From Candidatus Sungiibacteriota bacterium (lineage in GTDB: Bacteria; Patescibacteriota; Minisyncoccia; Sungbacterales; JACQCQ01): a stretch of 64,000 nt of DNA. The stretch spans positions 12,750 to 76,749 of the forward strand of contig JACQCQ010000002.1 in assembly GCA_016201505.1 (NCBI GenBank), given 5' to 3'. Below, piece after piece: positions 2,045 through 29,442 of the stretch. The position numbers and the translations under genes are program-made. Position 1 is the first letter of the stretch; every line of letters starts with the position of its first letter. A model generated the notes under the pieces. That model saw only the letters and a program-made list of their open reading frames with translations, was not told the origin of the DNA and did not search any database.

Positions 2045-2207
2045 TCTGTTTTCCCCTTATTCTGTTGGTAGTGAACTAAAACTGTGGTGGCATCGTATCA
2101 ACCGTTGCAGGATGCGTCAATTCGTATATTTTTGCTACAATGCTTACATATTTATTGTATGGAATACGAACCGGTGATTGGGATTGTCCCGATTTGTCAA
2201 TTTTGAA

Positions 2208-2489
2208 ATGCCTTACGTTTATATACTAATTTCTAAGAAAGACAGAAGATATTACGTTGGGTCTACAACTGACTTAGATCTAAGATTAAAAATGCATAAT
2301 TCTGGTACAGTGACCTCAACTCGATTTTATAGACCCTGGCAGCTTTTTTATTCTGAACAATTTGATACATTGGGCGAAGCAGTCAGTCGAGAAAGGAAAA
2401 TTAAATCTTGGAAAAAACGAACCGCCATTGAACGATTAGTAAATGGCATTTCAAAATTTGAAACAAATCGAGGATCCTCGACCGATTAA
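2208..2489 (+). CDS. Small GIY-YIG nuclease-family protein (UPF0213/COG2827-like), copy 1
   Basis: MPYVYILISKKDRRYYVGSTTDLDLRLKMHNSG...SRERKIKSWKK matches the GIY-YIG (YVYIL...YVG.T.DL..RL..HN.G) pattern. ATG at 2208 lies inside a terminal inverted repeat. Confidence 0.75.
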   Translation: MPYVYILISKKDRRYYVGSTTDLDLRLKMHNSGTVTSTRFYRPWQLFYSEQFDTLGEAVSRERKIKSWKKRTAIERLVNGISKFETNRGSSTD

Positions 2490-2498
2490 AATCGGTCG
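2479..2498 (+). terminator. 8-bp stem hairpin (CGACCGAT taaa ATCGGTCG) across the GIY-YIG stop, just upstream of gatB
   Basis: Perfect inverted repeat seen directly. No clear T-tract, so the function is uncertain. Confidence 0.3.
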
Positions 2499-2516
2499 GG
2501 AAAGTACACACCGAGT

Positions 2517-4025
2517 ATGGATTATGAAGCTGTTATAGGTATAGAGTGTCACGTCGAACTCAAAACGCGGACGAAGATGTTCTGCGACTCTTTAAATGAT
2601 CCCGATGAGAAGCATCCGAATGTGAACGTCTGTCCGATCTGCCTGGGGCATCCCGGCACATTGCCGACGATCAATAAAGCCGCGGTTGAGAAAGTTATTC
2701 TCGTTGGGCTCGCCCTGCATGCCGAAATTCCTGAATACTCGCAGTTTGATCGCAAAAATTATTTTTATCCTGATTTGCCGAAGGGCTATCAGATTTCCCA
2801 GTATGAGCATCCCTTGGTCAAAGGCGGCTATCTTGAATTTAAATCGGCTGACGGCGCGGTGCGGCACATTCGCATCACGCGGGTTCATTTGGAAGAAGAC
2901 ACCGGACGGCTGATGCACCAGGGTAGTCCCTCGACAAGCTCGGGACGACCAACTTCGTTGGTCGATTTCAACCGTGCCGGGATACCCCTGATGGAACTTG
3001 TCACCGAGCCGGATGTGAGAAGCGCGGAAGAAGCGCGCAGATTCGGCGAAGAGCTGCAGCTTATTATTCGGTACACGGGCGCTTCCGATGCGGATATGGA
3101 AAAGGGGCAGATGCGGGTTGAAGCCAACGTCTCGATCAGGCCCAAAGGCTCAAAGGAACTCGGCACTAAAGTCGAATTAAAAAATATCAATTCATTTCGC
3201 TTTGTCGAAAAGGCGGTGCTCTATGAGATCGCGCGTCAGACAAAACTTTTAGAAGAAGGCGGCAAGGTGATTCAGGAGACGCGCGGCTGGGATTCCGTGA
3301 GGGAAGTGACATTTTCACAGCGTATAAAAGAGGGCGCGACGGACTATCGCTACTTTCCCGAGCCCGATTTGCCGCCGCTTCTCGTTGATCAGAAGTGGCT
3401 CGCATCCATCCGTGCCAAATTAACTGAACTGCCCTGGCAGAAGCGGGTTCGGTTTGCCAGCGAATATGGACTGGATGATGCAACCAGCGAAGTTTTTATT
3501 CGCGAACCGAAATTAGCCGAGTTTTTTGAGGAGGTGGTTTCTGAACTAGAGGAATGGATCGCTTCGATGGGGGACAGAGTCATTAAATCAAAGGCCATAA
3601 AACTTGCCTCCAACTATATTACGAGCGACCTGCAGAAATTGCGGAACGAAACTGGCGCTCTCGTCGACGAGATGAACATTACCGCCGAGAATTTCGCGGA
3701 ACTCATGGCGCTGGTCTACGAAAATAAAATTTCATCGGCGGCGGCCAAACAAGTCTTGGGTGAAATGTTTAAAACCGGCGGCGACCCAGCGCAGATTATC
3801 GAGACCAAGAATTTAACTCAGGAAAGCGGCGAGTCGGCACTCCAGAATACAGTTCTCGAATTGATTGATGCGCATAAAGATATTGCCGAGCAAGTAAGAA
3901 GCGGCAAAAATCCGAACGCGATCCAGGCGCTGATTGGCGCCGGCATGAAAAAGACCCAAGGCAAAGCCAACCCGGCGGTGCTGCGGAGACTGTTTGAAGA
4001 GAATTTGAATTTGAAAAGAATTTGA
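2517..4025 (+). CDS. gatB: Asp/Glu-tRNA(Asn/Gln) amidotransferase subunit B
   Basis: MDYEAVIGIECHVELKTRTKMFC... is the canonical GatB N-terminus. Full-length 502-aa ORF. Confidence 0.95.
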   Translation: MDYEAVIGIECHVELKTRTKMFCDSLNDPDEKHPNVNVCPICLGHPGTLPTINKAAVEKVILVGLALHAEIPEYSQFDRKNYFYPDLPKGYQISQYEHPLVKGGYLEFKSADGAVRHIRITRVHLEEDTGRLMHQGSPSTSSGRPTSLVDFNRAGIPLMELVTEPDVRSAEEARRFGEELQLIIRYTGASDADMEKGQMRVEANVSIRPKGSKELGTKVELKNINSFRFVEKAVLYEIARQTKLLEEGGKVIQETRGWDSVREVTFSQRIKEGATDYRYFPEPDLPPLLVDQKWLASIRAKLTELPWQKRVRFASEYGLDDATSEVFIREPKLAEFFEEVVSELEEWIASMGDRVIKSKAIKLASNYITSDLQKLRNETGALVDEMNITAENFAELMALVYENKISSAAAKQVLGEMFKTGGDPAQIIETKNLTQESGESALQNTVLELIDAHKDIAEQVRSGKNPNAIQALIGAGMKKTQGKANPAVLRRLFEENLNLKRI

Positions 4026-4045
4026 AACAGAAGAAGGTTTGTCCG

Positions 4046-4087
4046 CATCTACTCTATCGTACGCTATAGCGTACGATAGAGTAGATG
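4046..4087. terminator. 19-bp perfect palindrome (CATCTACTCTATCGTACGC tata GCGTACGATAGAGTAGATG) 20 nt after the gatB stop
   Basis: Seen directly. No T-tract follows, so it could be a terminator, an RNA processing site or a protein-binding site. Confidence 0.35.
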
Positions 4088-4161
4088 GACGCACAGAGAA
4101 CGCCGGCGGAATGAGCGAAATGATTTAAAGAAAATTTGAAAAATGGTCAGAATTTTTTAAA

Positions 4162-4205
4162 GCGAATGTAATTTAGTGGCAGAATTCTTGCTTCCCAAGC
4201 CCCGT
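4162..4205 (+). repeat. Degenerate partial copy of the tRNA-Gly 5' half (D-arm and anticodon arm)
   Basis: gtaatttAGTGGCAGaattcTTGCTTCCCAAGC compared with tRNA-Gly gtagtatAGTGGCAGtacatTAGCTTCCCAAGC. The anticodon stem is disrupted and there is no T-arm. Confidence 0.5.
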
Positions 4206-4229
4206 ACCGTAATCTAAAACGCGCTTTGC

Positions 4230-4300
4230 GCGAGAGTAGTATAGTGGCAGTACATTAGCTTCCCAAGCTAATAGCAGGGGTTCGATTCCCCTTTCTCGCA
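4230..4300 (+). tRNA. tRNA-Gly (anticodon CCC)
   Basis: Manual fold: acceptor GCGAGAG/TTCTCGC with a G.U pair, D-arm, anticodon stem TTAGC/GCTAA with loop TTCCCAA (U33, anticodon CCC, A37), T-arm AGGGG-TTCGATT-CCCCT, discriminator A. No encoded CCA. Confidence 0.7.
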
Positions 4301-4318
4301 TTTAATTTTGTAGATTTT

Positions 4319-4414
4319 GGTCACGGGGCAAGCCAGGAGCCTGGGTTCGATTCCCGCCTTCGCATTGGTGTGAGGGCAAGCCATAGGCGCGGTTTCGATT
4401 ACCGCTGGCCGCAC
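4319..4414 (+). repeat. Two tandem tRNA 3'-half-like units (variable region + T-arm + acceptor 3' strand, each ending CGCA)
   Basis: Unit A is ...GGGCAAGCCAGGAGCCTGGGTTCGATTCCCGCCTTCGCA. Unit B is ...GGGCAAGCCATAGGCGCGGTTTCGATTACCGCTGGCCGCA and has a perfect T-arm GCGGT-TTCGATT-ACCGC. No matching 5' halves were found. Confidence 0.5.
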
Positions 4415-4465
4415 TGTTGATAGTTATGTCGTTTTTAAAAGATCTTTTATTTATAATTAATATCA

Positions 4466-8178: not shown

Positions 8179-8251
8179 GCCACCTTAGCTCAGCTGGTAG
8201 AGCAGCACTTTCGTAAAGTGAAGGTCCCGAGTTCGAATCTCGGAGGTGGCT
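8179..8251 (+). tRNA. tRNA-Thr (anticodon CGT)
   Basis: Manual fold: acceptor GCCACCT/AGGTGGC, D-arm GCTC-AGCTGGTA-GAGC, anticodon loop TTCGTAA (U33, CGT, A37), T-arm CCGAG-TTCGAAT-CTCGG, discriminator T. Confidence 0.75.
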
Positions 8252-8268
8252 CTGATAGAATAAGATGA

Positions 8269-8337
8269 ATGGCTGACATTCCCGCACGTCTTAAAAAAAC
8301 AAAAACTAATATCCGCGTGCTCGCGGAACGTCTTTGA
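8269..8337 (+). other. Relic upstream copy of the RF2 leader ORF0 (22 codons MADIPARLKKTKTNIRVLAERL ending CTT TGA C)
   Basis: ATG at 8269 is in frame through CTT(8332-8334) TGA(8335-8337). It is homologous in length and sequence to the functional ORF0 at 8636 (MNDIQQRLNIVRDKVRVLAERL) and shares its last 28 nt exactly. Confidence 0.5.
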
Positions 8338-8339
8338 CC

Positions 8340-8635: not shown

Positions 8636-9749
8636 ATGAATGATATACAACAAAGGTTGAATATTGTACGAGATAAGGTCCGCGTGCTCGCGGAACGTCT
8701 TTGACCTGCGCCAACTTCGCGAGGACATTTTAAAATACGAGTCTGAATTATCAGCGTCGCATATTTGGCAGAATGATCCCGAACGGGCGAAAGAGTTGGG
8801 ATCGCAAATAGCCAATAGCAAAAAAGAAATCGCGCGCTGGGAACATATCACGGGCGAGGCCGCGACGCTTGAGGAACTCTGGGCCATCGCCGGAGCCAGT
8901 CCCGATTCCGGGTTTCTCCGCGAATTTGATGAGCGGCTCTTTATGCTTGAGCAGAGTCTCCGGGCAGTCGAAATTGAATATTTATTTAGCGGAAAATATG
9001 ATAAAGGCTCGGCGCTGGTTTCGATTTATTCCGGCGCCGGAGGCAAAGACGCCGAAGATTGGGCGGCGATGCTGGCGCGCATGTACGAGCGCTACGCTGA
9101 ACGCCTGGGCTGGAAGGTGATCCGCGTCCACGAACATAACGGCGAGTACCACGGCCCGTCGGGCTGGGGGATTAAAAACGTAACACTCGATATAAAAGGC
9201 GACTTTGCTTATGGCTATTTAAAACATGAGCGCGGCGTGCATCGGCTGGTGCGCATCTCGCCGTTTTCATCGCAGTCACTGCGGCACACCTCATTTGCGC
9301 TGGTTGAAGCCCTGCCCGAGATGATTGAGCCGGAAGAAATCGAAATCAAACCCGAAGAAATTACCTTTGATTTTTTCCGCGCGTCAGGTCCGGGCGGCCA
9401 AAATGTAAATAAACGTGAGACGGCGGTGCGCGTGATTCATAATCCGACCGGCATACAGGCAACGGCTCAAAGCGAACGGACGCAGGAACGAAATCGTGAG
9501 ACGGCCATGCAGCACTTGCGGGCCAAGTTGTACCAAAAAAAGTTAGCCGAGATCGAGGCCGAACGGCGCGGCATCCGCGGCGAGCAGGTATCGGTTGAAT
9601 GGGGTTCGCAAATTCGCTCGTATGTCCTGCATCCATACCGGCTCGTCAAAGACCATCGCACCAATTACGAAACCTCGGATGTTGAGGGGGTACTCGACGG
9701 TGATCTAGACGCGCTGGTTGAGGCTTCGATTCGAAGAGTAATGCCGTAG
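8636..9749 (+). CDS. prfB: Peptide chain release factor 2, expressed through a programmed +1 ribosomal frameshift
   Basis: ORF0 runs ATG 8636..CTT 8701 then TGA 8702-8704. The +1 frame (GAC at 8703) continues DLRQLREDIL...SPF...GGQ... to 9749. SPF and GGQ motifs identify RF2. Confidence 0.9.
8699..8705 (+). promoter_or_regulatory. RF2 programmed +1 frameshift (recoding) site CTT TGA C
   Basis: Classic autoregulatory shifty site: CTT in frame 0 is followed by the in-frame TGA, and TTT GAC is read in the +1 frame. Confidence 0.8.
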
Positions 9750-11925: not shown

Positions 11926-12238
11926 TTGATCCCGTTAGAAAATCCCGTAACTTAAAAAAAGTTGTGGCTTGAATAATTTTAAATCTGGCGCTGGATAATG
12001 GCTCGTGTTAATTTTCTATCGGGATTGAAATATCACTTAAAAATCGGCATTATAGACAAAGTTTTCTTATTATCAGGCAGACCGTAGGTCTACCATAAGA
12101 AAACCTTAAGCGAAGAATCTCTTTTCAAAACACTCAATTTGCGAGCGACCATGGTGTCATAGACGAGCGAGCAAATTGGTGAGAGAGTTTTATCGGTGGG
12201 AAAACGAACTATTTTGAAAAGACGGTTCGAGCAGACAA

Positions 12239-12309
12239 TGCGGGATCGGCTAACGGCAGGCCACGAGACTCTGAATCTCGGTATCTTGGTTCGAATCCAA
12301 GTCCCGCAG
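12239..12309 (+). tRNA. tRNA-Gln (anticodon CTG)
   Basis: Manual fold: acceptor TGCGGGA/TCCCGCA, D-arm GGCT-AACGGCA-GGCC, anticodon stem CGAGA/TCTCG with loop CTCTGAA (U33, CTG, A37), T-arm CTTGG-TTCGAAT-CCAAG, discriminator G. Confidence 0.75.
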
Positions 12310-12712
12310 CCCTTCGACAAGCTCAGGGCCTTTGCCATAATAGGCTCATGAGTTGGAATGTTTACATTCTTCTTTGCGATCAGAAAACTTTTTATGTTGG
12401 TCTAACAGATAATATTGAAAGACGAGTGAACCAGCATAATCGGAAAGAGTCATTTTTCACTAAAAAGTTTTCTGATGTAAGGCTGGTGTATCAAGAAGAA
12501 TATAGAAACAGAGCCACGGCTGAAAAAAGAGAACTGCAGCTCAAGAAGTGGAGTATCGCAAAGAAGAAAGCTCTCATTATTGGAGATAAGGAATTGCTAA
12601 AGAAATTAAGCAAAAGCCGTGAGGTTGACGATATGCTGGGGTAGTAAAGATAATGGTGAGCAGTTCGACAAGCTCACTGTTGAACGTGTCGAATCCATCC
12701 AAGTCCCGCAGC
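12291..12712 (+). mobile_element. GIY-YIG mini-element copy 3 inserted at the 3' end of tRNA-Gln, bounded by direct repeats of the tRNA 3' end
   Basis: tRNA 3' segment TCGAATCCAAGTCCCGCAGC (12291-12310) recurs as TCGAATCCATCCAAGTCCCGCAGC (12689-12712) after the GIY-YIG gene. Sub-terminal TTCGACAAGCTCA is present near both ends (12313-12325 and 12664-12676). Confidence 0.55.
12348..12644 (+). CDS. Small GIY-YIG nuclease-family protein, copy 3 (intact)
   Basis: MSWNVYILLCDQKTFYVGLTDNIERRVNQHN...RELQLKKWSIAKKKALI matches the GIY-YIG pattern and the C-terminal KxW region of this family. Confidence 0.8.
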   Translation: MSWNVYILLCDQKTFYVGLTDNIERRVNQHNRKESFFTKKFSDVRLVYQEEYRNRATAEKRELQLKKWSIAKKKALIIGDKELLKKLSKSREVDDMLG

Positions 12713-12897
12713 TATCCTTCATTAAAGCTACGGAATAGCAGGCCATCTTTCGCCAAGGTCCACTACGCCTCCAGAGCTGCAAGCAACGGAGCGTTACAGA
12801 ATGGCATGCCCCCAGTTGAGGAAATTTGGAGTCAGGCTTTAGGGGCTAAAGCCTGAATGCGGTTGCTATTTAGCCCTGAATGCGATAAAAACAAGTC

Positions 12898-24865: not shown

Positions 24866-24972
24866 ACGCGGTCCCGTTAGAAAATTAAGCTGTATCTCGC
24901 AGAAAATAAATGACGAAAATTTTAGAAGAAATCAGAAATTACATTAAAGTCACTGGTTAATTTTCTAACGGG

Positions 24973-25197
24973 ATGAAAGAAGCCATTGAACAAGCGCTGG
25001 ATTCAGTCCGTCCCATGCTCGCCCTCCATCGCGGCGGCGTGGATTTTGTTGCCTATAATGAAGAGACCAAAACCGTCCAGGTCAGGTTAAAGGGAACGTG
25101 TCACGGCTGTCCGCTGTCGAGCCTCACCTTAAAAGCTGGCATCGAGGAGATTTTAAAAGAGAAGGTTCCGGGGGTGCTCTATGTTGAGTCGGTGTAA
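24973..25197 (+). CDS. NifU C-terminal domain / Nfu-type Fe-S cluster carrier
   Basis: GTCHGCP CxxC motif in a 74-aa protein. Confidence 0.75.
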   Translation: MKEAIEQALDSVRPMLALHRGGVDFVAYNEETKTVQVRLKGTCHGCPLSSLTLKAGIEEILKEKVPGVLYVESV

Positions 25198-26760: not shown

Positions 26761-29442
26761 ATGCAAATGCCGCCGTTCAACAATTTCACCAATAAGGCGC
26801 AGGAAGTCTTAAAGAAATCGCACGATCTGGCGCTTGAGCGCTCGCATCGGGAGGTGGATACCCTGCACGTTTTGACCTCGCTCGTATTGCAAGAGGAGGG
26901 GATTGTTGAAGCTATATTGGAAAAACTGGATATCGATATTTCGCAGCTGGCCGACAAGCTGCTTGAGCTGCTTGACTCGATGCCGCGCGGCGCTTCGATG
27001 TCGGTCATCGGACAGGTGTATTTAACGCCGGATTTGGTGCGCGTCATGGAGCAGGCGCACCGCGAGGCCGGCCAATTAAAAGACGAATTTATTTCAACTG
27101 AACATTTAATGCTGGCCATCGCCGAAATCCCTTCTCGTTCGCGCGACATGTTGTTAAACGCCGGACTGACGAAAGACAATATTTTAAAATCTCTGCAAGA
27201 GTTGCGCGGCAACACGCGGGTTACCGACGCCGAGCCGGAAACAAAATACAACGTCATTGAAAAATACGCGCGCAATTTAACCCGGCTGGCCAAAGCCGAC
27301 AAGCTCGATCCCGTTATCGGCCGCGATGAAGAAATCCGCCGCGTCATGCAGGTGCTTTCACGCCGCACCAAAAATAATCCGGTGCTGATCGGAGAGGCAG
27401 GCGTGGGCAAGACCGCGATCGCCGAAGGACTGGCGCAAAAAATTGTTGCCGGCGAAGTACCGGAGTCACTTAAAGATCGTGAACTGATTTCGCTGGATCT
27501 CGGTTCGCTGGTTGCCGGAACAAAATATCGCGGTGAATTTGAAGACCGGATGAAAGCGATTTTAAAAGAGCTTGAGCGGGCTGACGGAAAATATATTATC
27601 TTTATTGACGAATTACATACGATTGTAGGCGCCGGTGCGGCCGAAGGCGCGATTGACGCCTCGAATATGTTAAAGCCGCCGTTAGCCCGCGGCGAACTGC
27701 ACGCGATTGGCGCGACAACTCTGAAAGAGTACCAAAAATATATCGAACGTGATCCGGCGCTGGCGCGGAGATTTCAGCCGGTTTATGTCGATGAGCCGAC
27801 GATCGAAGAAACAGTGGCTATTTTAAAAGGCTTGAAGCACCGCTATGAAGTCCATCACGGCATTAAGATCACGGACGGGGCCTTGGTCGCGGCCGCCAAT
27901 CTTTCATCGCGCTATATTACCGACCGCTTTCTGCCCGATAAAGCCGTTGACTTGATTGACGAGGCGGCCTCGAGTTTGCGGCTTGAGATTGATTCAACGC
28001 CCAGAAAATTAGAGGAACTGCGGCATGAAATCATGAAGCATGAAATTGAGCGTGAGGGACTCAAAACCGCCAAAGACAAAATTTCGAAAGACCGGCAAAA
28101 AAAGATTGCCAAGGATCTGGAGATGTTAAAAGAAGAATACGCTAAGATCGAAGAGACCTGGAAGAGCGAGAAAGGTTCGATTTCCGAAATCCGCGAATTT
28201 AAAAAGACGCTTGATCAATTGCGCCAAGAATCAGCCTCGGCCGAGCGCGAAGGCGACTTTGGCAAAGTGGCCGAAATTCGCTACGGGCGCATTCCTGAAA
28301 CGGAAAAGAAGCTGCGGTTGGCCGAAACAAAATTGCGCAGACTTCAAACCGCTCGTCAGGTGGTTAAGGAAGAAGTGACTGAAGAAGAGGTTGGGGACGT
28401 CGTCGCGCGCTGGACGGGCATTCCCGTAACCAAGATTTTGGAAGCCGAAGCCGAGAAACTGATTCATATGGAAGAGGCCTTAAAACAGAGAGTCATCGGC
28501 CAGGCTGAAGCGGTGGAAAAAATTGCCAACGCGGTACGAAGATCTCGGGCGGGCATTTCTGATGAAGATCGGCCGATGGGTTCGTTTATCTTTTTGGGCC
28601 CGACGGGTGTCGGCAAGACGGAACTCGCCAAAACCCTCGCCCAATTTCTCTTCAACGATGAGAAGGCTCTCATTCGATTCGACATGTCCGAGTTCATGGA
28701 AAAACACACGGCTTCCAAGTTCTTCGGTTCGCCGCCGGGGTATGTCGGCTATGAAGAGGGCGGCCAGTTGACCGAGATGGTAAAACACCGGCCGTATTCC
28801 GTCGTTCTTTTCGATGAAATTGAAAAAGCCCATCACGATGTGTTTAATGTGCTTCTGCAGATTTTGGATAATGGGCGCCTGACGGATGCCAAGGGCCGCA
28901 CAGTGAACTTCAAAAATACGATTATCATCATGACTTCGAATGTCGGCAGCGAATTCGTGCAAGACTACTCACGACTTGGATTCTTGGGCGGGAGTGAAGA
29001 TACAAAATTAAAAGAAGAAGAGGATGTTCAATCCAAGATTAGGAAGACGCTGGAACGAAATTTTCGGCCGGAATTCTTAAATCGGGTGGATGAGATTATC
29101 TACTTCAAGGCTTTAACGCCCGAGGTTATCCGCGAAATTGTCGACATTCAGTTGTCGCGCGTAGCGCAACGCATGTCGAAAAAAGAAGTGGCACTTGAAT
29201 TCTCGAGTACCCTCCGCGATTATGTGGCGGAAAACGGCTATGACTCAAGGTACGGCGCACGGCCGTTAAAGCGATTCATTGAATCAAAGATTTTAAATCC
29301 CTTGGCTTCTGAAGTTGTCTCATCCCGCATAAATCCGGGGGACTCGATCTTTGTTGATATCCGGGATGGAGAAGTCACCCTCGAGAAATCCGGCATACGG
29401 CTGGCCACGGCGAAAAAACGGAATCTGGCAAAAATTAAGTAA
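26761..29442 (+). CDS. clpB: ClpB-type AAA+ disaggregase chaperone
   Basis: Two AAA+ modules (GEAGVGKT and GPTGVGKT Walker A) and a long coiled-coil middle domain. 893 aa. Confidence 0.9.

Follow-up and report, generated by a model that had tools for sequence, protein, structure and literature searches.

In a 64,000-nucleotide stretch of the genome of Candidatus Sungiibacteriota bacterium (assembly GCA_016201505.1, contig JACQCQ010000002.1, positions 12,750 to 76,749 of the forward strand), hereafter called the window, the start of gatB is occupied by a small gene for a GIY-YIG nuclease that is framed by a long perfect inverted repeat (IR). We consider it likely that this IR is one stem (stem A) of a small selfish cassette of the Patescibacteria, built of two adjoining hairpins, which holds the nuclease gene in the loop of its first hairpin (loop A) and which both splits and rescues gatB. 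This reading is carried by the anatomy of the site, the precision of the insertion, an empty site in a relative, the covariation of the stems, purifying selection, the spare parts that accompany the cassettes and the recurrence of the design at several targets. A preliminary description, made from the letters of the window, had taken the repeats for the terminal inverted repeats (TIRs) of a transposon-like cassette lodged in the spacer between thyA and gatB. It is partly supported: what lies here is a mobile nuclease cassette, but it is not a TIR transposon, nor is it in the spacer, as it interrupts codon 10 of gatB. We regard it as a variant on two known designs, the hairpin-associated nuclease of the Ssn type and the mobile open reading frame (ORF) that replaces the end of a gene.

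The junctions of the element (Table 1) read ATTG/TCCCGA...TCGGGA/AAGT and fall within codon 10 of the former gatB start. When positions 2159-2186 are joined to 2502-2515, the sequence reads MEYEPVIGIEVHTE, which is the N-terminus of the GatB of relatives (MEYEPVIG(I/L)E). The joined start matches the uninterrupted gatB of locus L003 at 36 of 42 nt, and its protein is identical to that of relatives; therefore L003 represents the empty site and the insertion is precise. The target-site duplications that the preliminary description suggested looking for were not found at either end (2186/2187 and 2501/2502), where the flanks rejoin to uninterrupted gatB sequence. The insertion has thus left the native gatB start behind in two pieces, and gatB is now read from a divergent duplicate of its first 14 codons. 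This new copy begins one base after the end of the old fragment, in frame with the body of the gene, and four of its residues differ from those of relatives. It agrees with L003 at 25 of 42 nt and with the old copy at 27 of 42 nt, and its GC content is 0.38, as compared to 0.48 in the old copy and 0.51 in the gatB gene. The old gatB ATG now opens a leader of 15 codons (MEYEPVIGIVPICQF followed by a stop), the TGA of which (2204-2206) ends 1 nt before the ATG of the nuclease. Removal of 2187-2501 in silico gives MEYEPVIGIEVHTEYGL followed by a stop, a truncated product of 17 aa; the element is therefore not an intron of a working gene.

The repeat search gave a perfect IR of 14 nt between 2199-2212 (AATTTTGAAATGCC) and 2445-2458 (GGCATTTCAAAATT), 100% complementary and with a spacing of 232 nt. 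It bears out the perfect 14-bp core of the preliminary description, in which the repeat had been written from 2198 as a 15-mer; this is one base too long, C2198 being unpaired. On shuffling 2150-2530 with preservation of dinucleotides, none of 2000 shuffles had an IR of 14 nt or more, and the longest value of 13 nt was reached in 4 of them, in line with the earlier judgement that such a repeat is very unlikely by chance. The whole window has six perfect IRs of at least 14 nt at 20-400 nt spacing, of which four lie within the three GIY-YIG cassettes and one within an element resembling a miniature inverted-repeat transposable element (MITE). The 14-bp IR is the inner part of an interrupted stem of ~26 bp, our stem A. 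Its outer extension pairs TCCCGATTTGT (2187-2197) with ACAAATCGAGGA (2463-2474), that is, TCC-CGATTTGT with ACAAATCG-A-GGA, and the imperfect extension to about 30 bp claimed earlier is therefore real and present in both folds. These minimum free energy (MFE) folds of 2187-2501, computed for DNA and for RNA, pair 2187-2212 with ~2445-2474 and place a further hairpin at 2475-2501 (z = -3.5; 0 of 100 shuffles fold equally well). Further nested complementarities exist within the GIY-YIG ORF (2221-2230/2435-2444 and 2259-2268/2327-2336). The repeats had also been said to overlap both ends of the ORF. This holds for the left arm, which includes the stop codon of the leader as well as the start codon of the GIY-YIG ORF (ATG at 2208), but the right arm lies in the 3′ part of the coding sequence, with the stop at 2487-2489. 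Nor is the unit the single IR pair that had been implied, since the second hairpin follows directly and makes it a double hairpin. It may be noted separately that at 2176-2194 the old gatB remnant GATTGGGA pairs with the left foot TCCCGATT (two G.T pairs), a weak, terminator-like match of the terminator scan. The Ile-Gly-Ile codons probably produce this pairing by coincidence, and none like it is apparent at the tRNA-Ala targets described below.

The thyA-gatB region was compared in relatives, as the preliminary description had asked, and Sungbacteria were found to differ in what occupies the gatB 5′ site: nothing in L003, a homologous cassette in L001 and an unlike, ORF-less hairpin insert in L004. 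L001 is the closest relative (73% protein identity) and has the same old-start remnant and the same junction next to a different upstream gene. The arm AATTTTGAAATGCC is replaced there by AATTCTGAAATGCC and its partner GGCATTTCAAAATT by GGCATTTCAGAATT, a compensatory T>C / A>G pair. Between the window and L001 the synonymous divergence (dS) of the ORF is ~2, that is saturated, and its ratio of nonsynonymous to synonymous divergence (dN/dS) is 0.09, while the foot and arm upstream of the ATG are identical at 19 of 21 positions; therefore both the protein and the stem are under selection, that on the ORF being purifying. Differences in the old gatB fragment between the two are mostly synonymous, which fits a translated leader or independent homing in each lineage. 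In L004 (GCA_016181565.1, 1738-1906) the insert is of ~106 bp and has a 16-bp perfect palindrome (ATCTGTACCAATAGAC..GTCTATTGGTACAGAT). It lies 7 nt upstream of the insertion point of the window, with the old start MEYEPVI upstream of it and a new start, MEHEPVIGIEVH, downstream. A regulatory hairpin of gatB was also considered and rejected, as there are relatives with an intact gatB and no hairpin.

Further homologues came from a protein search, two contig look-ups, a scan of 185,579 species genomes (loci L005-L084) and a metagenome scan (loci L085-L164). The double-hairpin elements have a fixed architecture, 5′-TCCCGA-stem A 5′ arm-loop A-stem A 3′ arm-TCG-N-GGA-TCC-N-CGA-stem B 5′ arm-loop B-stem B 3′ arm-TCGGGA-3′. 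Loop A contains the GIY-YIG ORF, or a few bases in miniatures, and loop B is either tiny or contains a complete tRNA gene. When each ORF was scanned with 50 nt on either side, perfect IRs of at least 13 nt (up to 23) were seen to bracket it in ~10 of 82 genome loci and in 12 of 77 metagenome loci. The arm sequences are unrelated between loci, and the shuffles gave at most 8-12 nt. In the Patescibacteria relatives closest to the window protein, the left arm begins 7-25 nt ahead of the ATG and the right arm has its end close to the stop; the long stem A is limited to the Patescibacteria subgroup of the family. Covariation was analysed in an alignment (A3) of 25 double hairpins, mostly of Patescibacteria, which comprised the feet and, for each stem, the eight variable pairs next to them. 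As these were picked for at least six in-register pairs per stem, the paired percentage is inflated: 93.0% of the cells are paired, against 71.8% in column shuffles (0 of 500 as high). Both sides have changed in 143 cells, against 44.8 expected, and on sliding the partners by 1-3 columns the pairing falls to 32-54%. Because of this selection, the unbiased longest-repeat scans are the cleaner evidence. The stems covary across elements, and the arms are not sequence-conserved TIRs: only the 6-nt feet are kept and the remainder varies yet stays complementary, as in a hairpin.

That the IR frames a mobile nuclease cassette is borne out by homologues placed in tRNA-Ala anticodon loops, in tRNA D-arms, in tpiA and in other genes. 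The old-start and new-start layout of gatB recurs at L015, where the element splits the old start of tpiA (MPKKFIVAN/W..) and the new start MDKKYIVANWKMN lies 12 nt past it, and in another gene at L006, with the new start 9 nt past the element. In at least 10 loci the insertion follows G35 of an anticodon loop, in nearly all cases that of a tRNA-Ala (..CATTTG/TCCCGA....TCGGGA/CAATG..), and a complete tRNA-Ala is present in loop B of 10 elements. The tRNA junctions rejoin exactly, and for L013, L039 and L096 the sequence obtained by joining the flanks is still identified as the same tRNA; the spare tRNA of such sister cassettes is the same isoacceptor as the split one. L096 (1177-1690) is nested, in that the anticodon loop of the spare tRNA-Ala(CGC) in loop B is itself split by an ORF-less double hairpin bearing another tRNA-Ala(CGC). 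Insertions into D-arms carry a spare tRNA-Thr or tRNA-Lys (L089, L110), and ORF-less miniature double hairpins occur in the D-loops of displaced tRNA halves (L002, L009, L016, L023). Elsewhere ORF-less copies measure 70-90 bp, and the insertion point is always 3′ of a G. The preliminary description had reasoned that the same IR around non-mobile paralogs in all relatives, for example as a regulatory hairpin, would speak against a mobile cassette. The IR is indeed kept within the subfamily, but the relatives are insertions at different sites, so that this reasoning does not apply.

Two more cassettes are found in the window itself. At prfB, the GIY-YIG pseudogene is bracketed by the IR ACCCCGCCCCTTGAGATTT / AAATCTCAAGGGCGGGGT and has an internal 14-nt IR (8501/8592). 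Two perfect 28-nt copies of TCCGCGTGCTCGCGGAACGTCTTTGACC (8312-8339 and 8679-8706) flank this cassette and span the programmed +1 frameshift site CTTTGAC of release factor 2 (RF2). Of the two prfB starts, the old one lies at 8265 and the one in use at 8636, and TTTGACC is present on both sides of the IR-bounded part. At tRNA-Gln, 16 nt of the 3′ end of the tRNA (ATCCAAGTCCCGCAGC) are perfectly repeated at 12295-12310 and 12697-12712, on either side of the intact GIY-YIG gene. This gene has perfect internal IRs of 16 nt (12379-94/12461-76) and 14 nt (12367-80/12555-68), and, within 12239-12715, is flanked by small hairpins bearing TTCGACAAGCTCA. Since the gatB, prfB and tRNA-Gln cassettes repeat the same design, the combination of a small GIY-YIG gene framed by an inverted repeat with the duplication of part of an essential gene is general in this genome.

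The 93-aa protein has the motifs, the catalytic residues and the fold of the GIY-YIG superfamily and is a member of it. Pfam PF01541 matches residues 1-71 (E = 5e-18, 65.6 bits against a cut-off of 22.6 bits), no other domain is present, and Y5, Y16, G18, R26, H30, N31 and E62 are invariant among homologues. In NCBIfam the sole match was sub-threshold, to the group I intron endonuclease model TIGR01453 (20.7 bits against a cut-off of 56.05, residues 4-32). The AlphaFold2 (AF2) model has a predicted local distance difference test (pLDDT) value of 85.7 and a disordered tail (83-93); these last ~11 residues are the translation of the stem A 3′ arm, the central foot and stem B. The nearest solved structures by sequence are the UPF0213 proteins BH0048 (E = 7e-7) and EF2693 (E = 3e-6). 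Foldseek likewise ranks UPF0213 proteins first, followed by the branched-DNA nuclease Slx1, which is structure-specific, and by HIGLE, with I-TevI and UvrC below. The nuclease is UPF0213/Slx1-like and probably Ssn-like. The family is large: a cut-off of E <= 1e-3 gives 7483 clusters, and one of E <= 1e-10 gives 619. The ORF lies within 300 nt of a tRNA gene in 72 of 95 genome loci and 66 of 89 metagenome loci, and ORF and tRNA share a strand in every such case of the genome set and in 64 of the 66 metagenome cases. These tRNA-adjacent ORFs are spread over Patescibacteria, Bacteroidota, Ignavibacteriota, Acidobacteriota, Chloroflexota and other phyla. Often the 5′ end of the tRNA supplies the last codons and the stop of the ORF, and often the ORF stands between two copies of the same isoacceptor. 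Tandem arrays also occur, with five identical copies at a 347-bp period in L030 and four copies in L029.

Table 1. Positions of the gatB-site element, its parts and the related genes in the window.
Feature	Position	Strand	Basis or remark
thyA	1112-2044	minus	Flanks the element
Old displaced gatB 5′ fragment ATGGAATACGAACCGGTGATTGGGATTG: ATG, codons 2-9 and 1 nt (MEYEPVIGI)	2159-2186	+	GatB of relatives, L003, L001
Double-hairpin GIY-YIG element, 315 bp, GC 0.36 (0.51 in gatB)	2187-2501	+	
Element feet: TCCCGA; TCGAGGA-TCCTCGA (palindrome TCGAGGATCCTCGA); TCGGGA	2187-2192; 2468-2481; 2496-2501		
Stem A 5′ arm: foot TCCCGA, TTTGT, bulged C2198, AATTTTGAAATGCC	2187-2212	+	Repeat search, folds
GIY-YIG ORF, 93 aa, single domain, in loop A	2208-2489	+	Pfam PF01541
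Stem A 3′ arm: GGCATTTCAAAATT, TGAA internal loop, ACAAATCG-A-GGA	2445-2474	+	Repeat search, folds
Stem B hairpin: TCCTCGACCGATT-AA-AATCGGTCGGGA, 12 bp, loop 2-4 nt	2475-2501	+	Folds, sister elements
Continuation of old gatB frame: AAGTACACACCGAG = (E)VHTE	2502-2515	+	Joined sequence matches L003
New gatB 5′ end: MDYEAVIGIECHVE	2517-2558	+	Direct repeat of old start
Functional gatB: new 5′ end and original body	2517-4025	+	GatB_N E = 3e-114, GatB_Yqey E = 9e-36 (Pfam)
Frameshifted GIY-YIG pseudogene	8359-~8630		Just after tRNA-Thr (8179-8252)
Intact GIY-YIG gene, 98 aa, 31% identical to the 93-aa ORF	12348-12644		Directly after tRNA-Gln(CTG)

Some other repeats of the window may be recorded here. 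Two ORF-less elements of ~95-100 bp (11930-12024 and 24872-24973) have common inverted ends of 17-20 nt (ATCCCGTTAGAAAAT(TAA) ... TTAATTTTCTA(A/T)CGGGAT), TCCCG/CGGGA feet and unrelated interiors, and are MITE-like relatives of the hairpin feet; one of them lies ~200 nt upstream of tRNA-Gln and its GIY-YIG gene. The 11-mer TCGACAAGCTC is found at 2931, 12314, 12665 and 31261, each copy being the loop of a short G+C stem. With these four exact copies there are six with at most one mismatch, a number that 0 of 100 shuffles reach. One copy is in the coding sequence of gatB, in a loop of variable length (HQGSPSTSSGRPTS) where the GatB of relatives bears other small insertions. Around tRNA-Gly(CCC) (4230-4300, within 4170-4415) there is an upstream piece of D-arm and anticodon arm (~4176-4201) and two downstream pieces of T-arm and acceptor (~4335-4365 and ~4386-4414), which look like the remains of earlier insertions targeted at tRNA genes. 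Just downstream of gatB, at about 4040-4095, there is a perfect palindrome of 25 bp, and a perfect 14-nt IR without a GIY-YIG gene (AAATGTCTCATAGA / TCTATGAGACATTT) is present at 29909-29922/29996-30009, its arms 73 nt apart. Directly downstream of thyA and on the same strand, a 316-aa ORF (165-1115, minus) has a dihydrofolate reductase domain (E = 2e-53) and a C-terminal HIT-like domain.

How the cassette moves, and whether its stems act as DNA or as RNA, we infer from these arrangements and by analogy with known nucleases. The feet (TCC(N)CGA/TCG(N)GGA) together with the stems may serve in cis as the sites by which the encoded nuclease recognises folded single-stranded DNA (ssDNA), comparable to the NTS hairpins of the Ssn nucleases. 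Cutting of alleles free of the cassette, or nicking at the feet, would trigger recombinational copying (homing), in which the duplicated pieces of the target would serve as homology arms; this role would be most transparent at prfB because its two 28-nt copies are identical. A carried spare tRNA or a recoded gene start would make the disruption of an essential target survivable (‘disrupt-and-rescue’), and might perhaps also render the occupied allele resistant to cutting. At gatB, expression of the nuclease probably relies on signals of the host. Ribosomes that start at the old ATG would stop just ahead of the nuclease ATG and reinitiate, and while on the leader they would melt stem A; without them the nuclease ATG would be buried in a perfect helix. 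The distance from the leader stop to the nuclease ATG is 1 nt in the window and L001, 7 nt in L015 and 16 nt in L006. The D-loop and anticodon-loop targets fit an attack on folded single strands, although this is suggestive only.

Other explanations of the repeat were weighed against the double-hairpin cassette. There is hardly any chance that we are looking at fortuitous complementarity, at a coding by-product of an AT-rich ORF or at an artefact in the assembly of a metagenome-assembled genome (MAG). The low GC content (0.36) and a small local palindrome (TTTCAAAATTTGAAA) inside the right arm would favour a fortuitous origin, but both chance and coding by-product are rejected by the shuffles, by the compensatory change in L001 and by the covariation statistics. 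An artefact is rejected because the same bracket recurs with other sequences in more than 20 independent assemblies (ENA, NCBI, JGI). A self-splicing intron, or another insertion excised as RNA with the GIY-YIG protein as its homing endonuclease, is a very remote prospect as well. It is true that GIY-YIG ORFs are typical of group I introns and that anticodon loops and D-loops, into which these elements insert precisely and with no target duplication, are classical intron positions. Yet no ribozyme family was detected, Rfam giving tRNAs only, whether the window was searched at the gathering threshold or the element and L009 at E <= 1. Without cargo the elements, at ~70-90 nt, are too small for a group I or group II core. 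Precise removal from gatB yields MEYEPVIGIEVHTEYGL and a stop rather than GatB, and the score against the intron endonuclease model is far under its cut-off. The split tRNA halves have moreover decayed, with extra insertions, a 5-nt deletion (L009) and anticodon stems that do not pair (L013).

We judge it quite unlikely that the cassette is a classical TIR transposon or insertion sequence (IS), as in the preliminary description, with arms bound by a transposase, cut-and-paste movement and miniature non-autonomous copies. The ends are mutually inverted (TCCCGA...TCGGGA), the targets are diverse, and ORF-less copies exist, both the 70-90-bp ones of other loci and the two ~100-bp elements of the window with their identical 17-20-nt ends and TCCCG/CGGGA feet. 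Against this, neither the element ends nor the exactly rejoining tRNA junctions have a target-site duplication, and the element encodes no DDE, HUH, serine or tyrosine recombinase, its sole ORF being the 93-aa GIY-YIG hydrolase. Beyond the 6-nt feet the arms covary, unlike TIRs bound by a protein, and 64 kb hold a single copy, though across genomes there are many, miniatures included. A role of the stems as RNA structure and nothing else is, in our estimate, unlikely. Stem A would sequester the start of a toxic nuclease, or stems A and B would be processing stems of the RNase III type, and neither would have any part in mobility. The nuclease ATG and the region just upstream do lie within a perfect helix, the RNA fold has the low z value given above, the leader stops closely before the nuclease ATG, and in L014 and L013 stem B holds the 5′ leader of the carried tRNA directly against its 3′ trailer, in the manner of rRNA processing stems. 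The share of G.U pairs is, in addition, not clearly under that of tRNA stems. What this account does not cover is that ORF-less and tRNA-less copies retain stems and feet with nothing to regulate or process, and their persistence argues for more than translational or processing signals. Also, the two hairpins have their closing 6-nt foot in common, and the palindrome TCGAGGATCCTCGA that it forms resembles a repeated recognition site; no Rfam family matches, and the Ssn relatives are active on hairpins of ssDNA but not on RNA.

The closest published parallel to the double-hairpin cassette is the Ssn family, single-domain GIY-YIG nucleases of 94 aa which bind the NTS hairpin repeats (core ATTCCCGCG...CGCGGGAAT) that flank their own genes, and which cut beside these hairpins in ssDNA only, not in double-stranded DNA or RNA (PMC11893778). 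Chenal et al. (Nat Commun 2025; PMC11893778) described NTS-ssnA-NTS as IS-like and resembling REP/RAYT and IS200/IS605; tRNA is not mentioned in the text. The window element shares the size of ~93-94 aa, the GIY-YIG domain as sole domain, hairpin-forming inverted repeats on both sides of the gene and a foot, TCC(N)CG...CG(N)GGA, that resembles the NTS core, the likeness to the Ssn family (cd10448) being drawn from size, domain and hairpins. It differs in that its ORF lies inside the loop of one hairpin, within a fixed two-hairpin unit with a palindromic centre, and the window has no hundreds of dispersed repeats. Precise insertion into tRNA genes or gene 5′ ends with a spare tRNA or start is likewise absent from the Ssn paper (PMC11893778). 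A second parallel is offered by the mobile ORFs (mORFs) of fungal mitochondria (Allomyces atp6; Glomus atp6, atp9, cox2 and nad3), which carry a replacement gene terminus; relative to relatives, the native end remnant has 91% identity against 63.5% for the carried end (PMC3630166). As in these, an endonuclease ORF (GIY-YIG in atp9) lies within an essential gene, a foreign divergent gene end is in use, and the native remnant is nearer to relatives (36 of 42 against 25 of 42 nt in the window). The gatB element thus shows gene-end replacement of the mORF type, mirrored to the 5′ end. Unlike the mORFs, which are mitochondrial, replace the 3′ end, lack a frame of hairpins and encode larger enzymes (LAGLIDADG or multi-domain GIY-YIG), it is in a bacterial chromosome, belongs to elements that replace a 5′ end or a whole tRNA, and combines a 93-aa nuclease with a conserved, covarying double hairpin.

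Two further groups resemble the window element in part. The IS200/IS605 and REP/BIME-RAYT systems are hairpin-ended and ssDNA-based, leave no target duplication and use a Y1 HUH transposase with covalent intermediates. Hairpins at both ends, absence of duplication, insertion at a fixed nucleotide and ORF-less miniatures are common to them and the window element, but the latter has a GIY-YIG hydrolase only, targets the interior of essential genes and brings a rescue copy. The free-standing GIY-YIG homing endonucleases of phages (Seg, Mob, I-TevI-like) have 200-250 aa with a C-terminal DNA-binding domain. They too are selfish nuclease genes beside or inside a conserved gene, with presence/absence polymorphism and with sequestration of the start site to keep translation low. 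They have neither a hairpin frame nor a carried spare part, and the window protein is, by comparison, a bare catalytic domain. No description of the tRNA association of small GIY-YIG genes or of the double hairpin was found in the full-text literature, the searched collection being incomplete.

Several points weigh against the reading of the element as a selfish nuclease cassette. Cleavage by the encoded protein is a prediction from sequence, fold and the analogy to Ssn. A hydrolytic GIY-YIG domain cannot itself perform strand transfer, which leaves the chemistry of insertion and the origin of the old and new starts without a mechanistic explanation. Pairs of the G.U type make up 5-7% of the full stems, as compared to 8.9% in tRNAs of the same loci, which is not clearly lower; in the basal 14 pairs, G.T/G.U pairs are rare (about 8 of 700 cells). 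Taken together, these shares do not separate DNA-level from RNA-level pairing. The published SRM pattern (HGTCWY..YYVSBRH..WNVSBRG..RNCYNB) matches the window once, at 29316 and not at the element, and a search of the window for the exact NTS likewise gave no match at the element. The match at 29316 lies near the IR 29909-29922/29996-30009. To these points may be added the selection of the aligned hairpins for pairing, and the single copy of the double-hairpin centre in the 64-kb window, with no sign of recent proliferation in this genome. Lastly, the insertions L088 and L112 have no visible rescue copy, as expected if only insertions into essential genes need rescue.

For the wider family we put forward, tentatively and with less than even confidence, that small single-domain GIY-YIG nucleases (Ssn/UPF0213-like) and their hairpins form a large bacterial class of ‘disrupt-and-rescue’ selfish elements, which split essential genes and tRNA genes at precise positions. 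They would probably attack folded ssDNA and persist by means of a spare tRNA or a recoded gene end. This wider reading would account for the observation that about three quarters of such genes, across many phyla, adjoin tRNA genes on the same strand, often between copies of the same tRNA or in tandem arrays. If the explanation given for the window cassette is right, the small GIY-YIG genes, which form a very large and so far unexplained family, would gain a role, selfish mobility, and an architecture of cis sites; their only characterised relatives are the Ssn nucleases (2025), with their role outside Neisseria left open. Annotation pipelines would be calling extended or duplicated starts at such loci, where tRNA fragments and tRNA gene duplications would also be left, and the replaced gene ends, being foreign, would disturb phylogenies. 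A minimal nuclease with a programmable-looking hairpin would be of interest for ssDNA tools, and the cassettes would be a natural counterpart of synthetic cleave-and-rescue gene drives. For the reduced genomes of the Candidate Phyla Radiation (CPR), it would mean that even essential single-copy genes (gatB, prfB, tpiA) and tRNA genes can be invaded, given that a replacement part is supplied.

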